DNA from: Chlamydiota bacterium
Lineage (GTDB): Bacteria; Auribacterota; JACPWU01
Assembly (NCBI GenBank): GCA_016178055.1
Contig: JACOUC010000036.1
Coordinates: forward strand, 9 to 64,008
Direction: 5' to 3'
Length of the DNA stretch: 64,000 nucleotides
The notes under the pieces are model-generated. The model did not search any database and was not told where the DNA came from. It saw only the letters and a list, made by a program, of their open reading frames with translations. Both the position numbers and the translations under genes were made by a program. This document shows, piece after piece, positions 3,931 to 38,500 of the stretch. Position 1 is the first letter of the stretch, and each line of letters opens with the position of its first letter.

Positions 3931-6900
3931 TCACATGCTTCGTTCCGTCATCTCCGTCGCTTCACGAAATTTTTCCATTTGATCATGCCAACGGCTTACA
4001 TTTGCGAAGGGCGTAACCTGATGCTCGTCCACATCCACAAGCAATCCTTCCAACTCATCAGGTTTAAAACCATGCTGAAGCAATGCTCGGGTAATCGCTT
4101 CGGCATCCCCATAACAAATGGCAGCCATCACGGACACCATCTCCTGACCGTACATGAATTTGTCAAAGAGCCCTTGAATGGGTTCATATAAGTTCCTATT
4201 TTCGCGATGCCCCAGCAGCCACTTTTCTGCCTCCTTCCCGCGAAAAAGTTCCCTCACTTTTGTATCGATTGCAGATCTCGCATCTTGTTCATTCAAATCT
4301 GTCAGGAAAAGAACTCTATCTTGAGGAATTTGATGTTCCCTGCAAAGGGTATCAAACTCTTCTCGAGATCTTTTTCGTTCCACAAAAACCATTTTACGAT
4401 TTCCTGTTTCGGATTCTTTAATAAATTCTGTCGGACTCAAACCTCCCAAACTTTGAACCGGTAAATCCATATCGGGGAATAGACAAACAGGTTTTTGATC
4501 TGCAGATGGTTTTAGAGCCGCTAAAAATTTTTTCTGAAAATGACGCAGCTTGGTTTTTAATCCAATCAGATAAGCGAGGGCCAAAGATAAATCTCTAGGC
4601 CGTGACATCTGAACGTGTGTGACACCCAGCGTCTGGGAATTCAGCTGAGCGGTCATTTCTCCTATTTCCATTTCGAATGACGCACCATTCATATCCTGTC
4701 TGATAGACCAAGTCACATCCCCACTAAAGTCGAGCGTAATCGAGCTTTGCTGAAATTCTCCTCTTTCTACCTTTCCTTCAAGCTCTTGCTCAATATTTTG
4801 AACTGTTTGACCCAACCCCTCCTCATCCAAAAGCCTCCTTGCCTCTAGCTCGAGAGAAAGTCTTTCAGTTTTTGCCTGATGAGCCTCTGCCTCTCTAATA
4901 AGATCCGGATGTTTGACTTGGATCATGAGTTCGACCAGTACAGCATCTAAAGTCTTAAGATCATTCTCTGAAAGCGATGTCTCTTTAGCAAATGAATGTG
5001 TCGCATCTCCCAAAGTCCAAAGAATGTCATAAACGGTATGGCTCTCCATCCATTCCCTTAAGGAAAGTCCCGCCGTTATGTTCTCCTGGGCCCAGGATTC
5101 AAAATTTTGAATTAAATTTTGTTTATGGAATTGAACAACGCCCTCTAAAATTCTAGACTTCAAAGGTTCATCTTCGGGCACCAAATGAAGATAAGCTGAA
5201 AAAATTTCTACTAAACCCTTTCGTTCATTGATGGCCCTAACAGCCGCCCGAACACTGGCCCAGGGGAAGGCGTCTCTTCCTTGATAATGACAAACCAAAA
5301 GGTCCGCTCGATACAACCATTTGTTTATCTCTGTAAAAAAGGCATTTGTCTCGTCAGGGTATAACGACCGAATCCCTGAAGTGTTATAGCCCGGGAAAGA
5401 CAAGCCCGTTATAAGAAATTCTACAGAGGAGTAAACTTCATACTCTGGTTGAAACGGGATGGCCTCTTGATAAAGGCAGTATTGATTCTCACCAACACGT
5501 TGAATCACCAAATAAAGATCTTCATTCTGATTTTCAAAATAAATTTCCCCCCTCGGTAAATTTAAAAAGCAAACGCCTTGATGGGAAAGACGCTTTAACA
5601 ATCTCTCCACCACCTCCTGTTGAGTCTGGGTCAATAAATAAAAAGGCTGAATGGCATTTCCAGATTCATCAACCCAATCGACCCCCTTCGCCAAAAACCT
5701 GCGTTCTACCCCTTCATCAGGTTTCTTTAAATGGTGTAAAGTCATGCTAAGCGAAATAAAATCAAAAGATTCTGCAGAACGATTCTGCATAAACGATTCA
5801 CTCATTACATCATTTTGAGGAATTCTGGCGTCAAGATATGTCACCCCTTCTACATCCGTTTGTCCTCTCTCCCTAAAATCCGCACTGTTAAAAGCACTCT
5901 CTCTGATCTCTCCACTCTCTAGCGAATAACTGGGGAAAAAGGCATCTGTTCCTTCATAGCTAAAATGGGTCCCGGGCAAAGCCTCTTCAAAAGTTTTTCT
6001 CAAAAGATTGAGCGTGGGAGCCCCATAAGCCTTCGGGGCAGATCCAATGTCCAGCCAACGATAATGGTCTTTATGAGGTATCGACAAATGAAGTGAAGGA
6101 AGGTGAGTGGGAATCCATTCCGCTTCAACACCAAAGGGATTTGCATAAAGATGATACATGTCCAGTAAATATCGAAACTGAGGATTGATTTGGATAAACC
6201 GGACAATCGGCTCTCTTGAAAAAATATCTCTTCCTTCAAACATATTCACCACTGCAAGTGCAAGAGGCATGAAACGATGTTCTCCACTGGCATGCCAGGT
6301 CATGAATTTTAGAAAACGCACTATATTTTCTAAGACCTCTTTTCGCCGAGTCTCTGGCAAAGCAGCAACGATTGATAAAATCTTTCCTGCCTCTCGATGT
6401 CGTTCATCGTCATTAGCAAAATCCAACCCGAAAATAGCTGCAATTCCTTCTAAAATATTTTTCTCTTCAATCGTTTGGTGATTAATCTCCGTATAAATTC
6501 GTTTAATCTCAGTTAAGATATTCGTCCGACGCATAACACCTAAAAACAACTTCAAATGTCTCTCCAAATTCGCCTCTCGGGAAAACCTCTTGCCAGCCAC
6601 TTGTCTCGCCCTTTGTCCCATCGTAACTCTTAAATTTGGATGACGGATTAATTCCTCAATTTTCCCTCTAAACGCTTCAACATTTCCAGACTCAACAATA
6701 CAGCCTGTTTCTCCATCCACAACTGTTTCAGGCAATCCTCCCGATCGAGAAACAATAACGGGTTTTCCCATACTTTGAGCCTCTAAAGACACGAGACCAA
6801 ATGTTTCCTCATTTTTTAATGGTTCATCTCGTCTGCTTGGCATGGCAACGATATCGGAAAGAAAATACCAATCTCTCATTTCTTCCGCACTCAAAGGGCC

Positions 6901-9900
6901 TAAAAGAACAATTAAAACACCCTCTTCACGCAAATGTTGAATTTTCTCATACAAAGACTCTCTGAACTGTCTATTGTAGTCGTCATCTCCGTCTCTCAGC
7001 ATATCCTCCGTGAAACCCGCAATGACAACAGCCGCATTCCTCTTTAAATCATTTGATAAGCCCAATATGGCATCGAGCACGACGTCATATCCTTTCCGTT
7101 CCACTGGACGGCCCGACATCAAAATAACTGTCTTACCGGACAAAGAATGATTTACTCTCAAGTCATCTGTTTTGGTAGTAGTCACATAACGAGGATCGTA
7201 AAAACTTAAATCAGCAACAGGATAAAGGCACTCCACTTCAACACCAAAGTCCTTCTGAAATCTTTTTTGAACAGACTCACTAACCGTCAGAGCTAAATCA
7301 GCTTTCTTAAGAATATTTACCGTATTCGGAGAGAAAAATCTTGAATCACCAACCAAATCTTCTGGGACTCGATCTAACAAACGCCAGGGCCCTGAGTGAA
7401 ATTCTTGGATCACAGGTATTTTATTTTGTTTTCCGAACGCATTAAAAGCATTCCCTGCATAGTGAAAAGAAGATTCACTCACAATGAGATCTACTTTACC
7501 CTCTTCTTGTAAAATTTTCCTTAACAAGCCATTGACTTCATCTGCAAGATCTTGCCCTGGCTCATTATTCTGACGAGTCATATGAATTTGAACAACGCCT
7601 TCCAATTCCGATGAAACGACGACTTTACCCCCATCCCGTTTCAATAATGGAGACACCCTTTGACCACCACCCAGAACAATCACATGGATTTTGAGTCCTT
7701 TAATCTCTTGAGCCAATAATAAAAGCAGATGATCCATATAGGTCGATACCCCATTCATCTCCAAATACCCAGGGGCATAAAAAACAAGCACTTTTCCCGA
7801 AAATGCCTCTTTGAGTTGAGATAAGTTCTCTGTTGTTGAAGCTTCCCCCTGTGTAACAGTAATCGAACCCTCTGGACTTGTTTGGGAACCTTGGTCATCG
7901 TTCGCATCATCCCCTAACACCCCCTTCTGATAAAGGGCCCCTGTGACCGTTACCCAATGATTAGAGACAATGTGGGCAATCAGGCCCATGGCCAAAACCG
8001 GCCAGAGGCGAAGTATATTTGAAAAAAGGTTTGATACAACACTCGTCGGTTGAATATCCGGAAGAAGACCAGCAAGGGCAATGTCAGGTTGAATTAACGA
8101 AGTTAATATCAGCAACCCCATGCCCACTACTAAAAAAATCGCTGCTCTTTGACTCTTTCCCTTGACTTGCCTAAGCATCTGTCCTACGATTCCTGCCATG
8201 GAAGAAAATAAATCTGAAAATGATTCCGTAATGAAATCAAGCCACGTGGCTGTCATTCTTGAAGACCTTCGAGGCCAATTTAAGGTTTTTGGAGAAGGGT
8301 TATCCGGACTTCGTGAAAAGACAGAGGAAGGCTTCGCAAGAATCGATAAAAAGTTCGACCGTATCGAAAATGAGCTTGCTAATTTTCGCGTTCGTGTGCG
8401 CGGAGTTGAAGACGGCAATGCACGTATAGAGACCAAAGTCGATAAGATCGAAACCCGACTAGAGAAGGTTGAGACCAAGGTTGATAAGATCGAAATCAGG
8501 CTAGGGAAGATCGAAACCCGACTAGAGAAGGGTGAAATCAAGGTAGAAAAGATTTCAGAAAGTAACGTCCGAATTGAGGCCGATCTTAGGATCATCAAAA
8601 ATCTTGTCAAAGTGAAGGTTGATTTGGAAGAATATAAAATTCTGGAAGATCGTGTTGCCCTTCTTGAATCAAAATTTGCTGCTCTAGCGAGATAACGCGC
8701 TCCATACAAATTCCACACCAAATAAAAAGTTATCCCAACCACCAAAATCATCTCCCACGATGAGAGCCCTGTACGGAAAAATCCAAGAAGTGAGACCAGA
8801 GAAATCAAGGTTGGAATGAAAATTCTTCTGAAGCTAGATGAAAAACCGCTCGAAGCTCGAGGCTCAAAGCTCGAGGTAAATACTTCTTCGGTTCTTTGCT
8901 TTTCCCTCGAGCTTCGAGCCTCCAGCTCATTTTTAGCTTCTAGCCGCCTTTCATGCCCCCACACAAACACCACTCTCAAGACGGCGTAGAGCACAGGACT
9001 TCCTAAAGATAAGGCCCAAATAAAAATTTCTTCGATAAAAGGAACAACAAAATCTTCTTTAAAATCTCGACTCAAAGACTTTCGTCCAAGAACATTTACC
9101 CAAAACCAGTCGAGAGGTCGAGTAACCTGAGACGCCAGCCAATAGGAAGGAAGAAGAACGCCTTTGCCAGAAGAGAAAGAACCTAAAGCAGGATCAACAT
9201 AGCGACTTATAAATGCTTTTAACTCTTGCACTTTAAACAGAGGTTTTTCAGAAAGTTTTCGGGCTTGAATCTCATTAATATAGTGATTGAGCCAAACTTT
9301 TGCTAATTCTAGTCCCTCCTTATTGCCATGTTTTTTCATCATCTCTAGCAAAAATCCTTGCATGACCCCTGTTCGAAGAATGGCATCATGCCCCTGGCCA
9401 AGACTTTCATGTCGATAGCCCTTCTCACCTTCCCTCAACGAGCCAAGCCAGTGTAAATTAAAATAGTAATCAAGAAAGTGAGATGGATCGATCCCTCTTT
9501 TAGTTCCCCGCCATGTGATGAGAGAGAATTTCATTTCCCGACCCGAAATAACAGAAGCTCTCCCTTGTGCCGCTGTCAAATCTCGAACATCCACTCCCAC
9601 ATCTCCTGCATTAATTCTAAAGCCATCAATCAGGGTTTGAGCCTCAGGATTATAGTAACGAACCAAAAACCGTCCCATGGCCGCAAGGGTATTGATCATA
9701 TCTCCAGGCTCAACAAAAGCGCCCCACTTTCCAGGCAAACTTGTATTAACGAGTAAATATCCAGGAGGGATTCGATTTGCCCAAGCATGATGAGGCGAAA
9801 TATACTGAATCTCATCCCGACCATTGATGAATCGACTCGTGTAGGCGCTCACTTTTCCTTCCTGAGTCTCGACCTCTCCATCACGCAAAACCTCGACCAA

Positions 9901-12900
9901 TTCTGCATCCCCGCGATGGCTTAAAAGGGCTTGATACTCACTCGATGTAACACGTGATTTTTCTTGTGCGTCTCTGGCCATGACCATCACCAAAGGAATC
10001 ACTTCCTTCGTTTGTTTTAAAGTTGTCAAAATAAAATAAATATTCTGATAAACCCCCTCTTGAAGGCGAATGACTTGAACAGGAAATTCAATATCATCTA
10101 AAGAAAGTTTACGCCCTCCCAATTCATCCTGAAGAGAATCGAGCAAAATATTTCCCTCTCCCGTTTCAAGATTCTTCATCAACAGAGCCTCAACCGCATT
10201 TCTTGATTGTGCCAATGTCAAATCATTGCGATCCCGAGGCACATCCCACTGATCTCCCTGCCGCCACTGACCCGCTCGATAGAGGTCATAATGGCAAATC
10301 CTACCCCCTTGAGCCATCGAGGCATTGTCCGGCATTTTCTCCATCGCTTGAGATAATCTTTGATAGATCTCAAGCGTCTGAGAGAAAGTGGAGGGCATTT
10401 TGGTTTTGAGTATATTCAGCTTTGATTGATAACGCTCAAGCAAAGTCCGATCCTGCAAAATCACAAAATTGACTGCTGTTAGAAATAAGAGTTGGTCTAC
10501 TTGACTCTGAATCGCCCCTTCAATAAGTTTTCCAAGTGTCCCGATCTCCTCGGAAAGCAAGGCCTGTCTCACTTCTTCTGTGATACGCTGATGCACATTT
10601 TCTCGTCGAACCACAAGAGGTTGAAGAGTAGAGGCTGCAGGCAAAGCAGTTTCACCAGACAAAATATGCGCCTCAATAAACCTCCTCAACGCCTTGCCCA
10701 GGGGATTTTTGCCTTCGCGATTGAAAATTTTATCTGTGAGCTGGATAATCTGAGGATGCGTAAGACGGGTTCTTTCCAAGGCCTCATGAAGGGTCGCTTC
10801 ATCCACCAGATCCGAAATGCCAGTGCTCTTTTCCTCCGCCTCAAGAAACTGCATCAGATTGACCGCCAAAGCGCTTTCAGAGCCCAAGAAATATTTTTCT
10901 CTGCTCAAGACCCGAGCCTCAAACCATTTGAAAGCCTCTCGAGGATTTTGAAGAGCCGCCAAGACCTTTACTATTTCATCGTTTTCAATTCCTTGCTGAA
11001 CCAATGTGCTCCAAATCTCACTTCCAAGGCGCCCAGCCAAAGCCCTCGAGCGTTCTTCCACAAGCGTTACAACAGGCTCATGGGAACTTCTCACCTTGTC
11101 ACTTTGCTCTTCAATTTCTCTTCGCCACTGGGCTTCTTCGTCAGGCGTAACCTCTGGGCCAATGATGTTGCCTGAAGATGGCTCTTCTTCACTTAAGGCG
11201 AGTGACGGAGATTGGGAAGTTTGAAGTTGCCACACAATTTTAGAAGATCCATCACCATTCGTCGTTAACACCTGACTCCCATCTTCAGAAAACTTAGCAG
11301 AGCGCACCCAATTTTTTCCTCCATAAAAAGTCTCAAGGAGCTCTCTTGTTTCAACATTCCATACTTGACCACTCCAATATCGAGTTCGCTCTAGGTAATA
11401 GTTATATTGATCACCCCCCCAGCTTGTTTCAGTTCTATCAAAACGCATTGTTAATACTGTACGTCCATCAGGGGAAACAAGAATATGAACAAGTTTTTTG
11501 CCCATGTATTCCCTATAACGCTTGATAATGCGTTCCTTTGCTTCTTCGGTTAATAGAGAATCAGGAGATCGAGGAGTCGTGGTACCTAAAGGAGCGTCTG
11601 ACGCTGTCGAAGTTACACTTCCTTTTTTCCCCCTCTTTCGAGAAGGACTTGACGGAGGTGTGACTGTTGCTCCAGCAGAGTCAGCTGTTATCGTTGTCGT
11701 GGTCGAATCAGCCCCTGAGCCCGTTTCATCTCGCACAGGTTCAGGGACTATGACTACTTTTGGAGCTTCCGTACATTCCATCCTCAACCAATATGTCACT
11801 TCATTCTCCCCTTCTGTAAAGCCCAACTGACACCCTGGAATAGATGCCATTTGTGCCTTGAGTTCGAGTAGTTTATTCCTGACATTGGATTCTCCTGATT
11901 CTCTGAGACGAAGGGCCTCCTGTCTTGCAGCTTCAATGTCTGGATATTCACCGGTGAGATGTGTTTTTAAGAATTTCTCTTCGTTGGCAGACATTCTTCC
12001 TTCTCTGACAATCTGAATATTAAAGTGGCCTTCTTTTAATTCACTTCCCAGTTCAATGAATCGGCCTGGGTTGTGGGTTTTGGCGATGCGGACAAATTCA
12101 TTGAGCCAGTCTTTTGCGATGGGTCTTTGTTCTTCTGGTAGAGGGAGAGCTTGTGTGAATGGGGTGATGGCTGCATCTTTTAGTTGGGGGTCGTTGTGGT
12201 TTGAACGCTGCCTTTGTTGAGGGGGTGCAGGTAAAGGGGTTCTGGCCCAGAAGCAGCCATATTGTCCATTCATCTGATCGGTTTTGGGAGCGGTTCTTTC
12301 AGAGTCGATGAGATTTGAAAGCACGGCTGGCTCCACCCCATCATTCTGAGAATCCACTGTTTGGCCGACGAGTCCCATGATCTTCTGAAAGATGGGAGCG
12401 ACAGCTTGAGAAGCTGATAATCGATTGTCTGAAGGGGGCGCAGGGTCGAAGGTGAATTGAAAGCCTCTTTCTGGGTTGATGTCTATGTGGAAGGTTCCGC
12501 CATTGAGAATGTGGCCTTGAGCCATTTCTTCGAGGATTCTGTTGCTTAAGGGGTCTCTGATCTCCTGTTCGATGAGTCGTCGTAAGGGCCGTGCCCCATT
12601 GATGATGTCATAGCCTCTTTGAGCGAGGGTTTCATAGACGTTATCCGCGACTTCGACTTTGAATTTGTTTTCTGTGAAGTCACTGAGTTCCCGTTTTAAG
12701 AGGATGCGAGCAATTTGTCTTATGTTTTCAGGGGTGATGACGTTGCAGGCGATGATGTGGTCGATGCGGTTGATGATTTCAGGTTTGTATTTGGCTCTGA
12801 TGCTGGTTTCTACGGTTTGGGCAATGAGGTCGTTCATTTGGGTAATAATAGCTTGTGTTGCCTCTTCTGTTTCTGCGGTTTTAAGTTCTTCAGCCAGGGT

Positions 12901-15900
12901 TCGTAATGGACCTTGTATTTTCTCCATGCCAATGTTGGAGGTCATGATGATGAGGGTGTTTTTGAAGTCGACGGTGTTCCCTTGGCCGTCGGTGAGTTTT
13001 CCTTCGTCGAAGACTTGCATGAGGGTGGTAAGGACGTCCGAATGGGCTTTTTCGATTTCATCAAAGAGGAGAACGGAATAAGGACGTTTGCGGACGGCTT
13101 CGGTGAGTTGGCCGCCTTCTTGGAATCCCACATAACCCGGTGGGGAGCCGATGAGTCTGGATTTTTGATGGGATTCTTGGTATTCACTCATATTGAAGAC
13201 CGTTAAGGCCTGGTCGCTGTCAAAGAGGAATTGAGCTAAGGCTTTAGCCAGTTCTGTTTTGCCTACGCCTGTGGGGCCGGCCATGAAGAAGACGCCCATG
13301 GGACGTTTGCGCTCACCGGGGATAGCCCGGGCACGACGAATGGCTTGAGCGACGGCTTTGATGGCGTCTTCTTGGCCTACGACTCTTTTATGGAGTTCTC
13401 CTTCGATGTTCAAATATTTGGCTGCGTCGTCTTGGTCTAAGGCACCGACGGCCATGCCGGTCATGTCGGCTAAATATTCCTGGACGTCGGCTTGGGTGAT
13501 GCGGATGTCTTTTCTTAAATTGGATAATCGGCTCAAAATAGTATGGTAAGCCTCGAGTATGCCGATCATTTGGTTATGGACTTCGATGACGGTGGGGTCG
13601 GTGTCTGGAACTCCTTCTTTTTTAAGGTCGATGTATTCGTTAATGACGCTGTGGAGACGGTTGAGGAAGTCTTCTTTAGTCATTTCTAGACTGTTCCTTC
13701 GGGCGTTGACTCGGCCCATGGTTCCTTCTAAGACGTCAATGGCTTTGCGGGGTTGGGATTTTTCAGAGAGATAGCGTTGGGCGCATTTGACAGCGGCTTT
13801 AATGGTAGCACGATCTATTTTGAGTGAGAATTTTCCTTCTAAGTAGGTTTTGGCGCCCGTAAGAATGGTTTCTGTTTCCTGGACACTGGGTTCAGGGACA
13901 GAAACTTTGGTAAACCTGTCTTCGAAGGGTTTGTCTTGTTCGATGTAGGCTTTGTATTCAGGGTCTGTCGTGGCCCCAATCACAGTGACTCGCCCTTTTT
14001 CCAGGATGGGCTTTAAGAGGTCTGCGATTCGGGTGTCAATGCTGTTGCTGGGCCCTTTCAATAGGAAATGGATTTCATCGATGAAGAGAATGACGTTGTT
14101 GTTGGTTTTTTCAAGGAGTGGGATCAGTGTTTTGAGGTTGTCTGACATCTCTGAGAGGGTGCTTCCTAAAGCACCCGCTTTAAGGGCAATGATTCTCCTA
14201 CCCTTTAAAGGGCCATCGAGGTTGTTTCGGGCAAGTTTCAAAGAGACGAGTTCGACGAGGGCTGTTTTACCGACTCCTCTGGGGCCGACAAGAACTAAGC
14301 TGTTTTTGATTCTTACTGGAGTGGCCAGACGAGCCATGATGCGGCCGATTTCTTCAGAGCGCCCCACCAATGGGCGAGCGCTGTCAGCTTCAAGAGCGAG
14401 GTCATAGGTATAGTCTTTTAATACCTGCCACTCTTTTTTCTTTTGACCATTGCCTAAATCGACATCTGCGTTCAGTCCTATTCTCTTCAAGTAATCATCC
14501 AGGGGCTCCATCGGAGACTCACCTACAGAGAGTCGAAGGAATGGGACACCGAGGAGATATCCTAAAAGACCTGCAACTACGGTAAACAATAAGGAAGCAA
14601 TCGAAGATCTCCCATTGATCATCGAAGCCCCCCATGGTACTATTTTGATAAAGGAGGCTTTAAAATGTCCGCGAAACTGCAAGAGCTGACGGAATTGATG
14701 GGAGAATTGGAGCCTAAAAGTCTTTCTCGACGAAGTAGAAATGTTGCCAAAGCGCTCTTGGGTAGCTGCCGCGGCCTCATCACGCCTCGAGGTAAGTCCT
14801 CTACCCGGTGGATCCGACAAGAACGTTCCTCCCTCCACAGCAAGGTGAGATAGTTCTGTGCCCTCATTACCAACACTCATTCTCGATACAGATGTCATTG
14901 TCAACTGGCTATCGGAAGAGCTTGAAACAGGAACAGGTCGAGAGTTATGGAAAGCCCCATTTGACATTATCTCTAAAGCAGAAGAAGGTCGCTCTAGTGT
15001 ACTCATTTGTCTTACAACTCTGTTAGAGCTTAGATTTCTCTTGAGGAGAAAGAAACGGCTGAGTGACGCTTCGATTCGGTCTATTATTAATCGAATGTTC
15101 CAAATTATTTCGGTCAATGTTCCTGACAAAACTGAATTGCTCAGGGCCAACCATCTCCAGAGCCTCCATCCTTTGGACCCGTTTGACGCAATACTGCTCG
15201 CTTGCGCCATGTCGTCTGAAGAAGCTATTCTTGTTTCTCGTGACAAGCCACTCCTTCGCATTGCATCTGAATTCCTTGAAGCACTTAACCCTGAAGATGC
15301 CCTCGCCAAAATTTCAAAGTCTTGAATAGCATCAATGCTAAGACGAAAAACCGGAGAGCCAAAAATCCATCCTAAGAGGCCTGTCCCTATGGCTAATAAC
15401 ACAGAACCAATTTTGAGGATGTGTTGAGCATGTGTATGCTCTCCTTTTCCATCGCCATGAGAATGGGTGTGAGCGGGTTTCATCACTATGCTTGAGGTAG
15501 GGCCTCCTTCATTTGAGGATTGAAGAAGTTCGAGGATTTTAAATTCATCGAGCCAATTCCCAATGGCTTCTACGACGCTTACTCCGTCAGGGAGCCTACA
15601 CTCTTCTATAAGTTTTCTTACAGTGGCTTCATCATCGGCCCCCATTTTTCCCATTTCACGCAGTTTTTCAATCAGCCTGGGCGTTAAGGCCTCACGAAAG
15701 CGCTCTTGAGTATAAGCACCGCTATTGATCATTTCATCCAGGGCCTCAGGGACGGCATGGGAAGCAGCATGTTCTGCGTCTTCTGAGTCTAAGTTGCTTT
15801 TGATGTCGGGATTCTTTTCGGCATCTTGAGCAAGTTGCCGCCCGATCCGGCCTAAGATCTGAGTCAATTTCTTCGCCGCTTCGTCTAGTTTTTTCTGAAT

Positions 15901-18900
15901 AAATTCTTCCTTCATGAGAATATTGGCTTGAATCTCTTTAAAAGGCTTACCGTAATGCTGTTCCAGCTCTTTTTGAAAAAGTTTAATAAAAAGGTCCCGC
16001 GTCTTAGGATCAGCCGTTTTTAATCGATCCGCCAGAAATTCACGTAAGGGTCTTTCCTCACACCAGCCCAGGGCACCAAAACCAAAGAATGCAGATATGG
16101 GAGACGTCATTGCGAGGAGCGAGAGCTCCGAAGCAATCCCAGCTTTGCGCAAAACAGAGATGGCTTCGTCGGCTTCACCTCCCTGCAATGACGGCCAAAC
16201 ATAGCTTCCATCCAAAGACGGAAGAGGCAAAAGATTCACCAACCCTAAAGCCAAATTAATTTTGACTCCCCAAATAAGCGGGCCCATTAAAAATCCAAAA
16301 GGCCCAACGGCATTAGCGGCAAGGGCCCCTACCGCAAAGACCACGGCCAAAATTAAATTACTCACCGGCCCCGCAAGCGCTACTTTCTTCATCGAAGATT
16401 CTGAGAGCCGCCAAGAAGAAATAGGAACGGGCTTTAACCACCCGATCGGAATCCCGATCAAAAGCGTAGACGCTAAAAAAGAAATCGTCCCCCAAAAATC
16501 TAAATGCCTCCAAAACCTGAGCAACGTCAATCGCCCCGCCTCCTCAGCCGTCCGATCCCCCAACCTCGCCGCCAGCCATCCATGGGCATATTCATGAAGA
16601 ATCGCGGAGAAGAGAATAATTGCTATCAATGGAACAGCACTTCCTAAAAGGCCAGGGTTGGCCACAAATACAGCGGCAAAAGGAATGCACAAAAAGACAT
16701 AAATATTCTTGACTTGCCCCGGACTTGATTCTATGATTTTTCTCATGAATGAGAAAAAGACTCCAAAACCTATTCCTACTCCAGAAGAAGCCCAGCGATA
16801 CAACTCCGTTATTATTGAGGAGATGAGAAGCCAATTTAAGGTTTTTGGCGAAGGATTAACCGGTTTTAGAAAAGAAACGAATGCACGATTTGACAGACTC
16901 GAAGAAGTCGTTATGGATACGCGTGAACGTGTCTCTAGGGTAGAGAATAGACTCACCAAAGTTGAAGAGAGCAACGCTCGCATTGAATCTGACATTCGCC
17001 TCATCAAAAACCAAATCAAAGTCAAGGTGGATTTAGAAGAATTTAAAGTACTTGAAAATCGGCTTGTGATCGTTGAAAAAAGACTGGCTGCCCTTCCCAT
17101 CTCCGCTTGATTAGCGCTATTTGAAACTCTTCTGGAACCCCCTATACTGCGTATCAAGCCATCCACATCCCCCACATATCCTCCTAATTCCAAGGCTCTT
17201 CTAAGGTAAATTTCTATTGAATGAGCCGTTTGTGCGTGACTCAGGAAAAATCGCATCTGATCTTGCGTGAGCGTAGTCACGCGTTCAAGCCAAAGAAGAG
17301 GGTTTTTCTGCAATTCATCGGAAACTTCCGAACGATTTTCCTTTCCCGCTTTCCTCTCTATTTCTCGAATAACCCCTTCTAAATCTCTCGCCACCTCCTC
17401 CCAATTTTCTAAATTAAGTTCTCGGGCCAAAACCTCTTGATCCCTTTGCCATTGATCAAATTGGAGAGCCGTAAGCCCCGCAGCAAAAGCAGCCTCTTCT
17501 CCCAACGAGCGTATTTCCTCAAGAAAATGAAGCCTCGCGATTTTCTGAAGGGTCGGAAGTGAGGCTTCTTTTAAAGCATCAGGAGCGCCCGAAATAAATC
17601 CAAATTGCTCTTTCATCTTCCTAAAATAGGCGCTGCGATCGTCATGACCCGTCATACGAGGGGCAATGACCCAATAACCGATCTTGGCCTCTTTCAATTT
17701 CTTCGTGATCCCCTCCGTATGAAACCCACCCACCACAAGCGCTGCACAGGGAAGTTTCTTTTCCTGAATTAATTTAAGAGATTTTTCGAACATGATTTTG
17801 TCTCGTTTTAGAACTTGAGTGTAGAATTTTTGGGAGAGGTTAAAGATTTCTCCAAAATCAGGAGATTCATAGTCTATTGCTTCCTTTTTAGCTAATTCGC
17901 CAAGTTGAATTAGAAAATCTCCGATAAAGTCGTTCGGGCCTGCTTGGCTCGAGGCTCGAGGATAATACTTTGCTCGAGGCTCGAAGCTCGAGGCTCGAAG
18001 TAAATGCTTCTCCAGTTTTTGCTTTTGCCTCGAGCCTCGAGCTTCGAGCCGTTTTATGTCTTCCCTACTTCCTTCCATCGCAATCACACGCCTGAGTAGG
18101 TCATAGTCTTTTTCTAACGCCAGCAGCTCTTTCGCCTGAGGCGTTGTCGCCAAATTTTCAACGAGTTCTCCTTCGAGGTTTTTAATTTCTTCATCCAACT
18201 TCTCCCAAGAGATTTGTTTTAGGAGAGACATTTGTTGAATAAGGAGTTGAAGATTGGGATATGGAGCTGATTTCTCGACAGGCTCGAAACGTTTATTAAT
18301 TCTGTTATTGGAGTGCTTCTCGACTGCGCCTCTCGCTCCACTATCGTTTCTCGACGCGTTTCGACTAATGTCGAAACTTGCTTGAAAACTAAATTTATTG
18401 TTCGAGCGTAGTCGAGAACCTTCCTTCGCGTCCTCTACCTCCTCCTGGCCCCTCCTTGTGGTTTGCGCCGTGTTAGGCTCCAACCACTTCCTCGTCCACC
18501 CGCTACGGCGGGTACCCGGACTTGGTCGCAAGGAAGGGAGATTATTTCCCTCTAGCTTCGAGCCTCGAGCCTCGAGCATTCCTAAGTACTTGCTTAGGAA
18601 CAAATAATGCTCTTCATCACTGGTTCTGCCCAGCCGATGCTCTAAGATATTTCTCAAAACTTCATTGAGTTCTTCTTTTGGAAGCTTCTTCTCTAGTTCA
18701 GATAAAAATAAGAGGTATTCAGACTCAATTTTTGATGCGTCCGTTTTCTTTTCGAGTGCTTGGAGTCGAAGGTAGAAATCAAGCTGGGGGTAGTTTTGGC
18801 TCGAAGCTCGAGGCTCAAGGCTCGAGGAGGAAAGAGGAAGAGATTTATTTTCTACATTTTCAGTTTTTCCTTTTGTCTTTGCTTTTGCCTCGAGCTTCGA

Positions 18901-19887
18901 GCCTCGAGCCTTCAGCCCGTTTTCCGCTTCTAGCTGCTTTACATATTCCCCCATCTCTATCTTATGCTCCCTATACTTCTCCCTTTCTTCAATGAGCTCT
19001 ATCAATTCCTTTGGATAAATTTTTTCGGACAAACCCCTAAATATATCATCTAAACCCTGCCAGACATGCTCTTGTAAATTCCTCTCCTTCAAAAGCTCCC
19101 CCATCGCCCTTAAATTCTCGACATAATCAGACAGTTCTTCCACCCCCACTCCCTTAACCTTTTTTGGCCCTTCCTTAACGAGAAAAGTCTCCACCCCATC
19201 GAGTTCATTTTTATCCAAGAATTTTTTGAGAAGAGAAGCTAAAACCCTCTGATCTGGGAAAGACCAGAAAAAGGACATGTCCATTTCACCATCAGCAGCC
19301 TCACAAAATATATGAAATGGTTTAAAATTCTCAGATACGGCTCTAACTTTGAGATTGTTTTGGCTCGAAGCTCGCCCGCCTCGCCTGACTCGTTCGTCAG
19401 ACGAGTCGCCGCCTTTGGCGAGCCTCGCCCTTTGGCGGGAGGTGGGAGGCTCAAGGCTCGAGGTAAATACTTCTGCTTTCTTTGCTTTTGCCTCGAGCTT
19501 CCAGCTTCGAGCCTCGAGCCCGTTTTTTTCTTCGAGCTTCGAGCCTCGAGCCTCTAGCTGCTTTTGTAAAATTTTCAACATCCTCTGAATATTCTCTTGC
19601 GCCTGAGAATTACAATGAATATCTTCAATAATGAAGAGATGAGGTGCTCCGGGGACATAGAATTGATCGGTCACTTCCCCTATTTCATGGGGAATACGCA
19701 TCTCCTCCAAAACTGAACTTAAATCGAGGGATTTGCGATCCACAGGATTAAACTCATTTACAGAAGTGACTGCTTTCAAATGAGTTGCGAATTGAGTATT
19801 CTGGCCAACAGAATAAGAAATGTCATAAAAGAGGAAGGAAAAACAAACGCACAAACTAATCAATGAACGCATAAACCTGACAAGCAT
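3931..19887 (-). CDS. Giant multidomain membrane protein, ORF1 (Tiki/ChaN-like N-domain, M50 protease-like, ClpB-like AAA+ pair, GT4 glycosyltransferase, large unknown regions)
   Basis: The open frame is continuous from 3931 to 19998 and begins with a GTG. The likely true start is ATG 19887 ([18 protein letters not shown], a signal-peptide-like N-terminus), preceded by GAGAGGGG. Domain motifs are listed as separate features. Confidence 0.65.
   Translation of the reverse strand: [5318 protein letters not shown]
6600..8199 (-). other. GT4-family (GT-B) glycosyltransferase module in ORF1, preceded by a transmembrane hairpin
   Basis: [36 protein letters not shown] is the E-x7-E GT4 signature, at about 6724-6810. 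Upstream are [10 protein letters not shown] and two transmembrane helices. An internal Met (MAGIVGQ) lies at 8199. Confidence 0.65.
8162..8190 (+). promoter_or_regulatory. Sigma70-like promoter for the nested coiled-coil gene: TTGACT, 17 bp spacer, TACGAT, 7 nt, then ATG (leaderless-like)
   Basis: TTGACT at 8162-8167 and TACGAT at 8185-8190, with the ATG at 8198. The architecture is identical to 16709-16737. Confidence 0.45.
8198..8695 (+). CDS. Coiled-coil protein (paralog of 16745..17110), nested antisense within ORF1
   Basis: 166 aa, E/K/R-rich heptad-like sequence with tandem 11-aa units (VDKIETRLEK). Its N-terminus matches the paralog (QFKVFGEGLxGxR), and the differences between the two copies are enriched for plus-frame synonymous changes (GGC/GGA, GGT/GGA, AGA/CGT, ACG/ACA). 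It has its own -35/-10 promoter. Confidence 0.5.
   Translation: MEENKSENDSVMKSSHVAVILEDLRGQFKVFGEGLSGLREKTEEGFARIDKKFDRIENELANFRVRVRGVEDGNARIETKVDKIETRLEKVETKVDKIEIRLGKIETRLEKGEIKVEKISESNVRIEADLRIIKNLVKVKVDLEEYKILEDRVALLESKFAALAR
8848..8926. repeat. Family A palindromic element, full hairpin, in frame inside ORF1
   Basis: gctcgaagctcgaggctcaaagctcgagg, then loop taaatacttcttcggttctttgcttttc, then cctcgagcttcgagcctccagc. It translates as [32 protein letters not shown]. Confidence 0.75.
12450..14623 (-). other. ClpB/ClpA-like double AAA+ chaperone module in ORF1
   Basis: AAA-1 has Walker A [12 protein letters not shown] (about 14265-14300) and Walker B [8 protein letters not shown]. AAA-2 has Walker A [19 protein letters not shown] (about 13261-13293) and [10 protein letters not shown], with a ClpB-type C-terminal [13 protein letters not shown]. 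An internal Met (MINGRSS) and a transmembrane helix lie at 14623. Confidence 0.7.
14665..14853 (+). CDS. Small protein, putative VapB-like antitoxin partner of the downstream PIN gene (nested antisense in ORF1)
   Basis: 62 aa. A strong Shine-Dalgarno AAGGAGG lies 7 nt upstream of the ATG. It ends 4 nt before the PIN ORF. I recognised no antitoxin fold from the sequence itself. Confidence 0.35.
   Translation: MSAKLQELTELMGELEPKSLSRRSRNVAKALLGSCRGLITPRGKSSTRWIRQERSSLHSKVR
14858..15325 (+). CDS. PIN-domain (VapC-like) protein nested antisense in ORF1
   Basis: 155 aa. It starts LILDTDVIVNWL (first PIN acidic residue) and ends ...DPFDAILLACAMSSEEAILVSRDK (C-terminal PIN acidic cluster). Confidence 0.55.
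   Translation: MPSLPTLILDTDVIVNWLSEELETGTGRELWKAPFDIISKAEEGRSSVLICLTTLLELRFLLRRKKRLSDASIRSIINRMFQIISVNVPDKTELLRANHLQSLHPLDPFDAILLACAMSSEEAILVSRDKPLLRIASEFLEALNPEDALAKISKS
16100..16746 (-). other. M50 (site-2 protease) metallopeptidase-like module in ORF1
   Basis: HEYAHG (HExxH) lies in a transmembrane helix at about 16580-16597, and [10 protein letters not shown] (the LDG motif) lies downstream. The module begins at an internal Met, MRKII, at 16746. Confidence 0.6.
16709..16737 (+). promoter_or_regulatory. Sigma70-like promoter for the nested coiled-coil gene: TTGACT, 17 bp spacer, TATGAT, 7 nt, then ATG
   Basis: TTGACT at 16709-16714 and TATGAT at 16732-16737, with the ATG at 16745. The spacing is the same as at 8162-8190. 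Confidence 0.45.
16745..17110 (+). CDS. Coiled-coil protein (paralog of 8198..8695), nested antisense within ORF1
   Basis: 121 aa from ATG 16745 (the ORF track begins at TTG 16709). The block QFKVFGEGLTGFRKETNARFDRLEE is shared with the other copy. The ATG overlaps the minus-strand Met of the M50 module in a CATG palindrome. Confidence 0.5.
   Translation: MNEKKTPKPIPTPEEAQRYNSVIIEEMRSQFKVFGEGLTGFRKETNARFDRLEEVVMDTRERVSRVENRLTKVEESNARIESDIRLIKNQIKVKVDLEEFKVLENRLVIVEKRLAALPISA
17945..18050. repeat. Family A palindromic element, full, in frame in ORF1
   Basis: ggctcgaggctcgagg...ctcgaggctcgaagctcgaggctcgaag taaatgcttc...tttgcttttg cctcgagcctcgagcttcgagcc. Confidence 0.75.
18315..18420. repeat. 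Family C compound palindrome in ORF1 (TCTCGACTGCGC / GTTCGAGCGTAGTCGAGAAC arms with an inner gtttcgac/gtcgaaac hairpin)
   Basis: The GTTCGAGCGCAGTCGAGAAC motif recurs at 20103-20122 (intergenic MITE-like element) and at 54661-54680 (in ORF2). Confidence 0.55.
18554..18577. repeat. Family A element, single arm, in frame in ORF1
   Basis: agcttcgagcctcgagcctcgagc. It encodes [10 protein letters not shown]. Confidence 0.6.
18798..18910. repeat. Family A palindromic element, full, in frame in ORF1
   Basis: ggctcgaagctcgaggctcaaggctcgagg ... ttttgcttttgcctcgagcttcgagcctcgagcc. Confidence 0.75.
19362..19562. repeat. Family A compound palindromic element, in frame in ORF1, with an inner gactcgttcgtcagacgagtc palindrome
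   Basis: About 200 bp. Both arms are present, with a loop taaatacttctgctttctttgcttttg typical of the family. Confidence 0.7.
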
Positions 19888-20084
19888 GACAACCCCTCTC
19901 GATCTTGAAAAAATCAATAATGACTGCAAGCTTACATAAGTAAAGACACTTTGGGGACTAGAAATGTAAAAATAAAAATTTAGAAATTTCCATCTCACAA
20001 TTGATAAAGGAAGGTTTCTTATAGAATAACCAGCTATTCCTTCAAGCCCTTACATAATGATTTCCTCTACTTTATGGAACTGTT

Positions 20085-20215
20085 GCAAAATGTAAGCTTT
20101 ACCGTTCGAGCGCAGTCGAGAACAAATGTTTTGAGCTCGAACTTCTCGATTCGGCTCGAAATCTTCGACTTCTCGAGACTCGGCTCGAAGAATAACGGGT
20201 GATGCACATTTTGCA
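20085..20215. mobile_element. MITE-like element, about 130 bp, with 13 bp perfect terminal inverted repeats (TGTTGCAAAATGT), in the ORF1 upstream intergenic region
   Basis: ctgttgcaaaatgt...acattttgcaacag. The interior carries GTTCGAGCGCAGTCGAGAAC and TCGAA/TCGAG-rich palindromes related to families A and C. There is no ORF. Confidence 0.5.
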
Positions 20216-20286
20216 ACAGAGCCTTTATGAACTAAAAGTAACTGTTTTTATATACCTTTAGTTCACATTGTTTTCCAATCTCCCTT

Positions 20287-24213: not shown

Positions 24214-24246
24214 TATTTCGAATCTCGGATTTCGAATTTCGAATTG
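24214..24246. repeat. Left inverted tandem-repeat array (ATTTCGA/ATTTCGG units) flanking the four-helix-bundle gene
   Basis: tcgaatctcggatttcgaatttcgaattg. Its reverse complement is found at 24617-24650 (aatccgagattcgaaatccgaaatccgaaatc). Confidence 0.6.
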
Positions 24247-24255
24247 AAAAACAAA

Positions 24256-24618
24256 ATGAATTCTCAAGAGTTAAAAACGAGGACTAAACTGTTTGGACTT
24301 AAAATCATTCTTTTGGTTGAAAAATTGCCACGTTCAAAAACATTGGATATTATAAATCGTCAACTTCTACGCTCTGCAACATCCATCGGGGCAAATTATA
24401 GAGCTGCATGTCGTGCAAGATCCAAAGCGGATTTTGTGTCAAAAATTGGCATTGTCGAAGAAGAATCCGATGAATCAGTTTATTGGCTTGAATTGCTTAT
24501 AGAAACTAAGCTGGTTACTGATACCCAAATACATGTCTTGCTTAAAGAAGCAAACGAGTTAACAGCGATCTTTACCGCAACAGGAAGAACTACAAAAGAA
24601 AAACAGAAAAATGAATAA
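24256..24618 (+). CDS. Four-helix-bundle protein (23S rRNA intervening-sequence-type, bAvd-like)
   Basis: The segment ELKTRTKLFGLKIILLVEKLPRSKTLDIINRQLLRSATSIGANYRAACRARSKADFVSKIGIVEEESDESVYWLELL matches the family consensus. The gene is bracketed by inverted 7-mer repeat arrays. Confidence 0.65.
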   Translation: MNSQELKTRTKLFGLKIILLVEKLPRSKTLDIINRQLLRSATSIGANYRAACRARSKADFVSKIGIVEEESDESVYWLELLIETKLVTDTQIHVLLKEANELTAIFTATGRTTKEKQKNE

Positions 24619-26113: not shown

Positions 26114-26118
26114 CAAGA

Positions 26119-26178
26119 AGATCTATAAACGCGGATCTAACGCAGATCTATAAACGCAGATCAAATGCGGATCTATTT
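26119..26178. repeat. Left tandem-repeat array (about 11 bp AACGCGGATCT units) flanking the GxxExxY gene
   Basis: gatctataaacgcggatctaacgcagatctataaacgcagatcaaatgcggatctat. The inverted copy of the array lies at 26590-26648. Confidence 0.6.
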
Positions 26179-29237: not shown

Positions 29238-29345
29238 CAAGGTTATAGCCCGATAAAGGCAAACTATTCGAAAGAATGGGGCGCAAAGTTACAGATCCGA
29301 AGATTTTGAGTTCGTGAATCGTATAACATTCCACGAGTCAGGAAC
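29238..29345 (+). ncRNA. c-di-GMP-I (GEMM) riboswitch aptamer
   Basis: GGCAAACTATTCGAAAGAATGGGGCGCAAAG aligns closely with the Vc2 aptamer GGCAAACCAUUCGAAAGAGUGGGACGCAAAG, including the P1 GAAA tetraloop stem. It is followed by an intrinsic terminator and a pilin-like gene. A TTGACA is present at 29152-29157. Confidence 0.55.
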
Positions 29346-35549: not shown

Positions 35550-35576
35550 ATGCGGGAATCTGTTACGCGGCGGCGG
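35550..35576. repeat. Right copy of the 24 bp direct repeat flanking the HepT/MntA cassette (overlaps the ORF2 stop)
   Basis: See 34714-34740. Confidence 0.5.
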
Positions 35577-38500
35577 CGGCGAGTTCTGAGATGGCTTTGA
35601 GGTTGTTGCGAGTGATTTCGTCAGAAAGGTTTTTGCGTTCGATATGAATAGTTTTATTTTCTCTAAATTGTTGTGCAAGATTCGGGTCAATTTTCCCAAT
35701 CATTTCTAACACCTCGGGACTGACAGAATCTACCTGAATATTGATTTCATCATTGCTTAAGAGAATGATGTTAAGATCTTTCGAAATCAAACCTTCATAG
35801 AGACTACGATGTTCCATATGAACGATAAATTGAAAGTCTTTTTTCTCCAGTGCTTCTAATCCATATCCAGGTTTGGCAAGTTCAGCCTTAATAAAGTTGA
35901 ACAGTGCCTCACCCGCTAGGTCCTTACTTTCAGGAGTAAGTAATAAGACACTTCTATTGTTTTCCTCTCCTGTTATGCTAAGCAAGCTGTCAAACTCTGG
36001 CCCCAATGCACTCTTTAAAGAATCCTTTTTAATCTGATCATGATTCATGAGCACAATTTTAAATCCCTTATTATTTTTCATCTTCTGAGCAGCTTCTTTC
36101 AAAATCTCAATATAAAAATCCGCCTCAGGTCGCTTGACTCCCTTTGCATCGACCAAATTAGCTAAATCAAAATCAACGACGCCTTTTCCTTTACCAAACG
36201 ACTCGCGGCTGTTCACAAAGAGATTTAAGAAAGCTTTTGTTGCAACACGAAGATGATTGGGTAGCACTCGTATGTTTTTCAGCTCCTCGTCCTTCCATCG
36301 ATCAATCTGTTCAGATTTGGTTTTTAAACTTAGCTTTTCAGCATCCGTCATTTCATATTGATCAATTTTGGATTTGAAAGTGCTCGAAGGCTCTAATCCA
36401 TTCAGCTCTTCTCCACTGGCAAGTTTCATCTCAAGCTGCAATCTCCAACCAGCCTCGGCTGCAACGCCCGAGCGATGGGCATTAAGGCTCGAGGCTCGAG
36501 GCTCGAGGCTCGAGGTAGAAGACTTTTTCAGGCCAAACTCCCTATCTTCATGATTAAAAATATCATCAACAACATCTTTAAAGTGAATCCGCCCATCAAA
36601 AAGGGTTACCGTCGCGGCTTCAATCAAATATTCAATGGGGATGACTGACCAGCGAACGCCATCCACATCTACCGTGACAGAAGAAGCAGTAGAGACGACT
36701 CCATCTGCATCCGTCGTTGTGAAATAATAGGGATGCCGCCCCCTATCTGGCGAGTCGTTGCGACTTGCAAAAATAATGTTGCGGTCTGTAAACCATTCTT
36801 TGATCTGAGCATCGGTCAACGCCATTCCCCTAACGCTTAAACTATTCTTTAAACGCTCCACATATCCATCAGGTCCCGATTGACGATGTTTAACCTGCTC
36901 ATAAATATCTTGGGCATTTTCTTCAGAAAAATGACCGGACCCAATGGTGCGGGAGGTGATAGAAGAGGGCATCGCTGGAGCTATCGCAAGTGGATCCATA
37001 AGGCTCTGAACCTGAACAGTCTTATCATCCGAACCCTTGCTTCGAATGTTTAAGTTTGGTTGGGTCCTGTCGTCTAAGATATCTATCCCTTCTGCCTGCT
37101 CAACCAGGACGCGTGGAACATCTCTCACAGGAACCCTTGAAATCACTCTTCCCATCTGCGAGTCACTGAGGGGATCAGAGATTCCATCCGTCATTTCAAG
37201 TAGCCAAGACCCTGATGGAACCTCTTCTGCTACAACGACTATTGGAAAATATAGATGATTGGCAATCAGGCTATTCACCACCCTGTTTCTTCTCTGCCAC
37301 AGTTGCTCAGGAGTATATCGATTGAAGTCACTTGGAATGAGATGTTCCCACTTCTCAAAATCACCCTCCTGCTCCACAGTAGAATAAAAGGGCTGCAAGG
37401 TCCATATCAAACGTATTTTTTTTGCCCTTCGGGCATCGTAAATAAGAAGTGACGAAGAGGTTGTCACTGGATAATTGTCTATCGTTAAAGGTAAAAGTTT
37501 TGTCTTAGGCCTTCGTAAATAGACCCGAGAATCGCCCGCATTAATGGTATAGACCATATAGGTTCCGTCTTTTTTTGGGATCACAAGAGACACGGCTGCT
37601 GTTGTCCCCATTCTATTGATCGGAAAAAGTTTTAAAAAAATATTCCAATCCTTTCCGTAGAAGAAAGATTCCAACTCATTAATCCGCGCCTCAGATCGAG
37701 ATACTGCATCAAAAGCCTCTAATATACCCCTTTGATTATCGCGAAAATGTTTCCTTAAAGATTCGACATCACCCTGGGTCGTTGACCCTCTCTTCATCTC
37801 CTCGACCCATTCGGGTGTAAAAATTGACGGCTCAGAAGAAAAGGATTTTCTCAAAACTCTTTTGATCTGATTGCGATCATGGGCGCTTAAGGGGATGCGC
37901 AACACACGAGAGATGATGTTATCTAAGTAGGACTCGATCATCGATTCCGGCACTTCTTCTAAGATCATATAAGGATTTGGAACTTGGCTCATCTTCTCTA
38001 TGACAGAGTGGGCCCTTTTAAAAGAGCGAGCAAGGATTGTATAAACCTGATCTTCATCCGAGGCCTCCTCTAATTCCTCGGAAAGGATAGAGGAAATCAC
38101 AATCTTGGCAAGGGTACTGGCGACCTGCCCTCCAGGACGACCTCCCACGCCATCCAAAACGCCCGATACCCTCCAGCCATTCCTTAAAACCATCGCAAAT
38201 CGATTGTCCTCATTTCGATCCGGATGCGCACTGGAAGCCTTTGTCAGATGTGAAAACACAGTGGCTTCAACCCTCCATCGGTCGACATCCTGTGCTAAAC
38301 TCTCAAGGGAAGCTTGATCATTATGAGAAATGTTTGGATCATTGCGGATTTCGAGAATCAATTTTTCAGAGGGCGCTAAACCTTGTAAATATTTCTGGTC
38401 GCTTCTCTTCCTAGCCAGCAAAAGATCATGATGGATGCGCTCACCCTTTGAGGCACGGTATTCAGCGGCGACACCCACACGATGGGCTTGTTGACGAAGG

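Follow-up and report, generated by a model that had tools for sequence, protein, structure and literature searches.

How can a reading frame stay open for 16 kb when complete genes occupy the opposite strand of the same nucleotides? The question is raised by a 64,000-nucleotide (nt) stretch of the genome of a Chlamydiota bacterium (contig JACOUC010000036.1 of assembly GCA_016178055.1), hereafter called the window. On its minus strand, one open reading frame (ORF), ORF1, runs for 16,068 nt without a stop codon (3931..19998, 5355 codons from stop to stop), and the other frames of the window contain a stop about once per 16–20 codons. Four plus-strand ORFs lie wholly inside ORF1, on the opposite strand of the same nucleotides. 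A preliminary description had grouped them into three units and had offered two explanations, true dual-strand coding or a giant ORF that formed when once separate genes were fused by read-through. We consider it probable that ORF1 is a genuine translated giant gene that carries autonomous antisense genes in its linkers and whose frame is selected to remain open across them. The nested features, including two coiled-coil (cc) genes, are the following (lengths in amino acids, aa).

8162..8190, plus strand: cc2 promoter-like site (TTGACT, 17 nt, TACGAT; 7 nt to the ATG)
8198-8695, plus strand: cc2, 165 aa, a cc1 paralog with an expanded 21-nt (7-aa) repeat
14665-14853, plus strand: VapB-like ORF in the antitoxin position, 62 aa, with AAGGAGG at 14650-14656
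14858-15325, plus strand: PIN-domain gene, 155 aa, with a GTG start 4 nt past the VapB-like stop
16709..16737, plus strand: cc1 promoter-like site (TTGACT, 17 nt, TATGAT; 7 nt to the ATG), of leaderless geometry
16745-17110, plus strand: cc1, 121 aa, a member of a conserved family

The nested cc and PIN genes are real, because the cc genes belong to a conserved family of stand-alone genes, the PIN gene has a Pfam match, and both codon usage and the ratio of nonsynonymous to synonymous rates (dN/dS) favour the plus frame. By blastp, cc1 and cc2 are paralogs (E 6e-28), and the pattern TTGACT-17 nt-TA(C/T)GAT-7 nt-ATG has only two matches in the 64 kb, one ahead of each of them. Of the 116 aligned codons, 59 keep the amino acid, 32 of them with a synonymous difference, as against 57 nonsynonymous codon differences. 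Three of the synonymous pairs keep an arginine, AGA/CGT twice and CGC/AGG once. Synonymous divergence (dS) between the copies is saturated, and dN/dS is 0.22 in the plus frame versus 0.61 in the frame of ORF1. A codon-usage log-odds scan placed the plus frame above the ORF1 frame at 8131-8700, 14850-15200 and 16650-17000; elsewhere in ORF1 the plus frame wins only in a single window at 12931, in the ClpB tract, and the same scan found no such switch in the two other giant ORFs of the window. By these measures the plus-strand genes are under selection at the protein level, and they are probably expressed.

Homologs of the cc genes have been called as ordinary stand-alone genes in Chlamydiota metagenome-assembled genomes (MAGs) and in other assemblies. 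They share an N-terminal motif, LEDLRSQFKVFGEGL, and a C-terminal one, IKVKVDLEEFK-LENRL, and two stand-alone homologs display a similar layout of -35 box, 17 nt, -10 box, 7–9 nt and ATG. The nearest homolog of cc1 (P0002, 84% identical) is labelled by its source as a protein of a Chlamydiae/Chlamydiota MAG and is annotated as 70 aa. The predicted model of cc1 is one long helix (pLDDT, the model confidence score, 88), and searches of PHROGs and PADLOC gave generic coiled-coil matches only. Four tandem 21-nt (7-aa) repeats are found in cc2 at 8444-8553 and none in cc1, and P0002 has one extra 7-aa unit; the family therefore gains and loses length in heptad steps. At 16737-16758, a perfect inverted repeat of 10 nt (TTTTTCTCAT GA ATGAGAAAAA) is centred on the back-to-back starts of cc1 and of the ORF1 peptide MRKII.

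The PIN gene product matches PF13470 from end to end (45.1 bits, cut-off 27) and also exceeds the cut-off for PF01850 (42.3 bits). Its acidic-residue motifs LILDTD, LLELR, DPFDAIL and SRDK were recognized by eye only, and no solved structure was found to be related to it in sequence. Ahead of it, the 62-aa ORF has an AAGGAGG Shine-Dalgarno sequence 8 nt before its ATG and stops 4 nt before the PIN start; this geometry, together with the PIN match, would fit a pair of the VapBC type. On the plus strand, the preliminary description has held up in every detail that was checked: the placement of the units, the paralogy of the cc genes with their identical promoter geometry, coding selection on the plus frame, the PIN domain and the Shine-Dalgarno sequence of its partner were all recovered. 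It had also remarked that ORF1 turns into S/R/L-rich, antisense-looking sequence opposite each unit. This is indeed the case, and the codon score of ORF1 drops below that of the plus frame there.

The cc1, cc2 and PIN genes lie antisense to ORF1 in the phase that sets wobble position on wobble position; the VapB-like ORF is codon-aligned with ORF1. An open antisense frame is by far likeliest in the wobble-on-wobble phase, and its highest computed open-frame probability agrees with the earlier view that this phase is the least constrained. We calculated the probability that the ORF1 frame is open given each nested protein and the codon usage of the genome. It is 0.39 for cc2, 0.058 for cc1, 0.03 for the PIN gene and 0.01 for the VapB-like ORF. 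The joint probability over the four nested ORFs is about 7e-6, a value that leaves out the need for three downstream modules to be in frame and for the spacers to be open. Chance openness was rejected on this value; the continuity of ORF1 is not a product of chance.

The codons that keep the frame open can be identified. In the wobble-on-wobble phase, an ORF1 stop arises only where the plus strand has NNT followed by CAN, which gives TGA, or NNY followed by TAN. The codon that precedes the His and Gln codons of cc1, cc2 and PIN ends in C in 9 of 9 cases. Across the 1170 CAN codons of the genome, the preceding base is T in 52% and C in 17%, so that nine contexts without a T have a probability of 0.0013 and nine with C throughout one of 1.4e-7. 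In the codon-aligned VapB-like ORF, TTA, CTA and TCA account for none of the 19 Leu/Ser codons, whereas their baseline share is 23% (P = 0.007). Selection on the host frame within the overlaps thus appears to act as stop avoidance alone, and true dual-strand coding, as raised in the preliminary description, gains support from selection on the plus genes and from synonymous sites that avoid ORF1 stops. A cryptic reassignment of a sense codon to a stop was also considered. All 61 sense codons are present in ordinary genes and within Pfam-supported domains, and ordinary genes end at canonical stops. Sense-to-stop reassignment was therefore rejected; no hidden stop codon explains ORF1.

When metagenomes were scanned with the cc alignment, 64 distant cc-like loci came up, the majority of them stand-alone genes. 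In one of them, L052 (JGI Ga0080064_1000212, 47% GC), the cc-like gene is nested in antisense orientation in a giant minus-strand ORF (4862-20245, 5127 aa), and the nested frame is ahead on codon usage. This giant ORF, which is unrelated to ORF1, has DnaJ, methyltransferase, HATPase_c and 2-hydroxyacid-dehydrogenase domains. Four genes are nested in it, and for each the stops in the host frame were compared with expectation.

7573-7926, same strand, other frame: 23S_rRNA_IVP four-helix-bundle gene (PF05635, 139 bits) with its own GAGGTG Shine-Dalgarno; 0 host-frame stops against 7.2 expected, 0/5000 resamplings open, P < 2e-4
10001-10285, antisense: cc-like gene of the cc family; 0 host-frame stops against 4.7 expected, P 0.004-0.009
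11537-11803, antisense: HicB-like gene (17.7 bits, weak); 0 host-frame stops against 3.2 expected, P 0.03
11813-12040, antisense: HicA toxin gene (PF07927, 35 bits, cut-off 27); 0 host-frame stops against 2.8 expected, P 0.04

L052 is a second, independent case of the same pattern. Its giant protein has 1 Cys in 5128 residues, and this single residue falls in the segment that is antisense to the HicB-like gene. Since the lone Cys sits in antisense-derived junk, the whole ORF seems to be under one selective regime.

L052 also displays a 15-nt motif, GGCKCGCGGCTGGCG, that encodes G[AS]RLA. Its 24 copies (5786-19579) are all in one frame of the coding strand, are confined to the giant ORF and bracket each nested gene as well as many module borders. 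In a few copies, synonymous changes (AGG/AGA for CGG, CTA/TTG for CTG) leave the peptide as it is. The motif could mark sites of processing or recombination, or it could be related, in a two-unit form, to the heptamer element described below. No punctuation motif of this type was found in the window's own giant ORFs. In the short contig L050 (1-2226), a cc-like ORF also lies antisense in a frame that is open over 2226 nt or more and whose translation repeats AELRR; this cc-like ORF follows a TTGACA-17-TAGTGT promoter-like site without a canonical start codon. The antisense ORF of L015, at 68% GC, is uninformative.

To understand how such overlaps arise, the nested genes have to be seen against the modules of ORF1, which are as follows.

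19887, minus strand: likely start of ORF1, an ATG that opens the signal-peptide-like MLVRFMRSL..., with GAGAGGGG 5 nt upstream
17143..19887, minus strand: module A, the N-terminal domain, paralogous to the N-termini of ORF2 and ORF3 and with several in-frame heptamer-hairpin elements
15331..16746, minus strand: M50 metalloprotease module with a conserved C-terminal extension (ORF1 aa 1085-1556)
15334..15411, minus strand: transmembrane segment copy 1, IGSVLLAIGTGLLGWIFGSPVFRLSI, adjoining the PIN cassette upstream in ORF1 sense
14524..14601, minus strand: transmembrane segment copy 2, IASLLFTVVAGLLGYLLGVPFLRLSV, directly downstream of the PIN cassette, after the MINGRSS Met at 14622
12439..14622, minus strand: ClpB-like double-AAA module
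8946..12438, minus strand: post-ClpB region, shared with relatives to about aa 2756, then lineage-specific
3931..8199, minus strand: glycosyltransferase (GT4) and methyltransferase-like C-terminal module, opening with MAGIVG and a transmembrane segment

The codons outside these modules number 611 and include no stop. Exhaustively searched, a set of 1.84 billion cluster representatives yielded no close relative. The best matches were five long single proteins, P0009 (3378 aa), P0013, P0015, P0018 and P0023, which are collinear with ORF1 aa 1103-2756 at 31–38% identity over about 900 aa. In these relatives an M50 domain (HExxH) is followed by a conserved extension, one transmembrane segment, the ClpB-like double AAA and a conserved tail, all in one ORF and with no junk linker between the M50 and ClpB-like modules. 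From the M50 side to the ClpB side the gap is 17 residues in P0009 and 301 in ORF1, and the roughly 285 extra residues are made up of the PIN pair read in antisense and of a further copy of the transmembrane segment. Identity between the two segments is about 40% (local score 63 versus 23 +/- 4 for shuffles, 0/1000), with similarity at the DNA level as well. This comparison shows that the M50 and ClpB-like modules formed one ORF ancestrally. Because the relatives have them in one ORF, and because ORF1 has the extra residues and the duplicated segment, the PIN cassette is best read as an insertion into an older continuous ORF. An origin by read-through fusion is therefore contradicted at this junction, the only one that could be tested; the earlier question of whether M50 and ClpB occur as separate genes in relatives was likewise answered by one ORF in all five. 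Three other searches added little: a query that joined the M50 module, the linker and the ClpB N-terminus brought a single weak match, species-representative genomes scanned for the M50 module contained small ordinary M50 genes only, and a chimeric query of two flanking genes gave nothing above 30% identity.

Part of the same segment differs in codon make-up. Across 12020-14420 (aa ~1860-2660 of ORF1), third positions are 0.43 C, 0.10 G and 0.17 T, compared with 0.12-0.19, 0.21-0.27 and 0.28-0.40 elsewhere in the window, and this make-up reverses both GC and AT skew. The borders of the tract coincide with the segment homologous to the distant relatives, not with a cassette edge. Recent recombinational replacement of part of ORF1 may be the reason.

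In ORF1 an internal Met followed by a transmembrane segment opens each module, and, as had been pointed out before, the Met of MAGIVG shares a CATG with the start of cc2, that of MRKII shares one with the start of cc1, and the ATG of MINGRSS lies 42 nt from the VapB-like ATG. The first ~13 codons of the M50 and GT4 modules, Met included, are the reverse complement of the cc promoter/start region. This region is homologous between the cc1 and cc2 cassettes, and the peptide GQVK within it is the reverse complement of TTGACTTGCC. Neither MRKII nor MAGIVG is preceded by a Shine-Dalgarno sequence. These two starts are poor evidence for internal initiation, because they are by-products of the CATG brought in by the cassettes and have no Shine-Dalgarno. 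The proposal that the modules are still expressed from internal starts thus finds little support, MINGRSS being the only candidate, with a run of G ahead of it. No duplication flanks cc1 or cc2 at the DNA or protein level, and the searches gave no informative relative for the junctions of module A with M50 and of module C with GT4. The cc units, too, may have entered by insertion instead of being caught in a fusion. An invertible cassette was considered and rejected, as no inverted repeats flank the nested units.

Several observations weigh against a single translated giant protein with working genes in its linkers. No constraint at the amino-acid level was detected on the ORF1 peptide opposite the nested genes. 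Within a single polypeptide, the duplicated transmembrane segment would turn the topology of the ClpB module around, and because of this flip two separate products would fit the duplication better. The MINGRSS ATG has GGGGGG in a Shine-Dalgarno-like position, 5 nt upstream. Inside ORF1, the hairpin at 8836-8945 resembles a bidirectional terminator. Finally, the 62-aa ORF had been called VapB-like; its position and Shine-Dalgarno sequence would fit the name, but no family match was found in Pfam, NCBIfam, PHROGs or PADLOC, and its codon-usage score is poor, with no advantage over the ORF1 frame.

The duplicated segment, the G-run and the hairpin are among the points in favour of gene fission, the likeliest of the rivals, which we nevertheless regard as unlikely. 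Here, module A, the M50 module, the ClpB module with its downstream part and the GT4-methyltransferase module would be made separately from internal starts and the continuous frame would have no function; in one form of this explanation cassettes split an ancestral giant gene, in the other the genes were never joined. A Met and a transmembrane segment open each module, and the duplicated segment would leave an anchor on both halves of a split M50-ClpB protein. The G-run ahead of MINGRSS and the terminator-like hairpin between module C and cc2 point in the same direction. Module A and the GT4-methyltransferase module are absent from the M50-ClpB relatives and so lie outside their architecture, and at a further locus, L003, separate minus-strand genes flank a cc homolog, which is located beside the start of a module-A-type gene. 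Against fission, no stop codon ends any of the upstream modules, and the three downstream modules are all in frame, which would happen by chance in 1/27. Openness requires the specific synonymous choices behind the joint probability of about 7e-6, and the same signature recurs in L052. Two of the three internal Met codons, MRKII and MAGIVG, sit in cassette-derived sequence and lack a Shine-Dalgarno. The arrangement is also old enough for neutral stops to have accumulated, since dS between the cc genes is saturated and the transmembrane copies are only ~40% identical, and none is found.

Module A bears on the same choice. It is paralogous to the N-terminal 500–600 aa of ORF2 and ORF3, where thousands of residues come after the domain; because of this paralogy it would fit the role of leader of a long protein. 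These two giant ORFs are also on the minus strand of the window (35563..56601, 7012 aa, and 56702..63754, 2350 aa) and contain protein-kinase and PP2C-like domains. The N-terminal domain of all three giant ORFs shares the motifs ..QDIH..Q.N.. and GGFHT, and their Cys content is 0.17–0.41%, versus ~1.1% in ordinary genes.

A second rival holds that ORF1 alone is functional and that the plus-strand ORFs are unexpressed remnants of cassettes serving as linker DNA. The deficits of the VapB-like ORF in family match and codon usage are in line with it, as is the annotation of P0002, the nearest cc1 relative, as just 70 aa. It seems very unlikely, though, that remnants would leave all four plus ORFs intact, or that the plus frame would have remained the more constrained one since the cc1/cc2 split (0.22 vs 0.61), with multi-step Arg changes among the differences. 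Promoter hexamers and spacing are identical in cc1 and cc2 (C or T at one position of the -10 box) and similar in homologs, and the PIN gene retains its profile match over the full length and a codon usage that favours the plus frame. Chance or artefact, be it an accidental ORF, an assembly chimera or an unrecognized genetic code, is effectively refuted: the wobble-aligned antisense of K/E/R-rich coiled-coil genes is often open (in 2/3 stand-alone cc homologs), but not across 611 non-module codons at a conditional probability of ~7e-6, with all 61 sense codons in use, canonical stops in ordinary genes and an independent replicate in L052.

For the giant gene with antisense genes in its linkers, the events could be pictured as follows. 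The product of ORF1 would be a membrane-anchored multi-module protein composed of the N-terminal domain, the M50 protease, the ClpB-like ATPase, GT4 and the methyltransferase. Three autonomous units would reside in the linkers between modules, namely the two cc genes with leaderless-type promoters and the PIN gene with its partner ORF, and the insertion of the cassette at the M50/ClpB linker would have duplicated the transmembrane segment. Only those insertions and variants that keep the frame would survive, which would lead the nested genes to avoid ORF1 stops at their synonymous sites: the codon ahead of CAN would end in C and not in T, and TTA, CTA and TCA would be avoided, with the nested protein sequences kept. 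ORF1 would thus be translated across the linkers, and ribosomes would read the antisense of the nested genes as a junk-like S/R/L/W-rich spacer that is constrained just to openness. A mixed regime, in which read-through is combined with some internal initiation, may also apply.

Because the nested promoters oppose the giant gene, transcriptional collision and antisense pairing would be expected. A regulatory side effect of the opposed transcription is plausible, for instance through convergent transcription or through RNA antisense to the giant mRNA. A wider generalization, which we put forward only tentatively and regard as rather doubtful, is that giant ORFs in this group of bacteria are translated arrays of modules, similar to polyproteins or cassette arrays, whose linkers are settled again and again, in either orientation, by selfish genes (TA pairs, the cc gene and the IVP gene). 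The host would put up with these genes provided that its frame remains open, the embedded TA pairs and antisense promoters would stabilize or regulate the giant gene, and G[AS]RLA of L052 would mark sites of processing or recombination at which modules are delimited.

The ORFs of the window also harbor a smaller type of element, built from GCTCGAR heptamers that form hairpins. All 29 pattern matches fall within the three giant ORFs (0 expected), and they are concentrated in the shared N-terminal domain. The element that lies nearest to a nested gene, and the positions of the repeats, are listed here.

8836..8945, both strands: heptamer-repeat hairpin (-49.5 kcal/mol) with T-runs on both sides, read through by ORF1, 140 nt past the cc2 stop
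8848-8926, 17946-18055, 18542-18577, 18798-18917 and 19435-19558: heptamer repeats in ORF1
36487-36515, 54886-55003, 55621-55649, 63040-63068 and 63341-63399: heptamer repeats in the other giant ORFs

The elements are stop-free on both strands in all frames and encode the same kind of peptide in every frame (LEARGSKLE or LEPRASS). As the unit is 7 nt long and has no stops, an element fits an ORF in any phase and orientation. [quoted passage not shown] The hairpin at 8836-8945 could terminate the cc2 transcript and be melted by ribosomes in the direction of ORF1. TCGAG-rich repeats akin to the heptamer element are also found between genes, directly upstream of ORF1 (20100-20190).

Small genes of the cassette type occur outside the giant ORFs too. 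A 23S_rRNA_IVP gene (24244-24618, plus strand) and a PDDEXK_3 gene (26110-26655, plus strand) are wedged between the GDE, PmbA and TldD genes, and the IVP family is thus common to the window and to the nested gene of L052. A c-di-GMP-I riboswitch (29248-29373, plus strand; Rfam RF01051, 56.9 bits) lies directly upstream of an ORF at 29397-30494.

The overlap can be compared with several known arrangements. Embedded antisense genes have been described as young overprinted ORFs, such as olg1 and olg2 of Pseudomonas aeruginosa and those of E. coli O157:H7 (PMC8850804, PMC9927249 and the review of bacterial overlapping genes PMC7457138). Like ORF1 and its nested genes, these overlaps have proteins on opposite strands, one ORF wholly inside the other and evidence of selection in both frames. 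Unlike them, the embedded genes of the window and of L052 belong to old, widespread families (PIN, HicA, 23S_rRNA_IVP and cc) and have their own promoters, and here it is the host that is the secondary reading, constrained only to stay stop-free. According to PMC10969869 (citing Ogata et al. 2000), RPEs and intragenic MITEs are selfish in-frame insertions that are translated within the host protein. As characterized there, they resemble the heptamer-hairpin elements of the window in behavior; they measure ~150 bp and contain no gene, whereas the units in ORF1 are complete genes of 0.4-0.7 kb, mostly antisense. Giant genes with many transmembrane segments are known from Omnitrophota and other bacteria (bioRxiv 10.1101/2023.11.21.568195; 10.64898/2026.06.07.730766). 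They share with ORF1 a length of many kb, several transmembrane segments and mixed enzymatic domains; the words 'antisense', 'nested' and 'opposite strand' are absent from the texts of both reports. The M50-ClpB relatives, unlike ORF1, have no nested cassette, no module A and no GT4-methyltransferase module, and one transmembrane segment instead of two.

Type II toxin-antitoxin (TA) modules such as VapBC and HicAB are mobile cassettes that stabilize the region in which they reside, for example in chromosomal integron arrays. The nested pairs resemble them in having a short upstream ORF, a PIN or HicA toxin after a gap of a few nt, and a position among unrelated modules; they differ in lying inside an ORF and not between genes, and the antitoxin identity of the upstream ORF is unsupported. 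23S rRNA intervening sequences carry a small ORF for a four-helix bundle (Pfam PF05635). There, too, a small selfish gene sits inside a gene whose function survives, but an rRNA acts as the host, from which the insert is excised at the RNA level, while the frame of ORF1 runs through its inserts. We therefore place the case among overlapping genes as a new variant, in which complete old genes lie in a giant ORF whose frame is preserved, rather than in the classes of TA modules in operons or of gene fusions.

If this reading is true, an old, domain-bearing gene would have a translated portion of a giant protein encoded on its opposite strand, and the overlap would have arisen by insertion instead of overprinting, a route not discussed in the literature that we searched. 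The synonymous avoidance of stops on the opposite strand would then be a clean signature of dual coding that can be read from sequence and searched for systematically. Gene callers that accept the giant ORF would silently lose the genes nested in it, and no record of the nested genes was found for the window. Finally, the embedded TA modules would suggest that selfish elements are linked to how giant genes are maintained or regulated.

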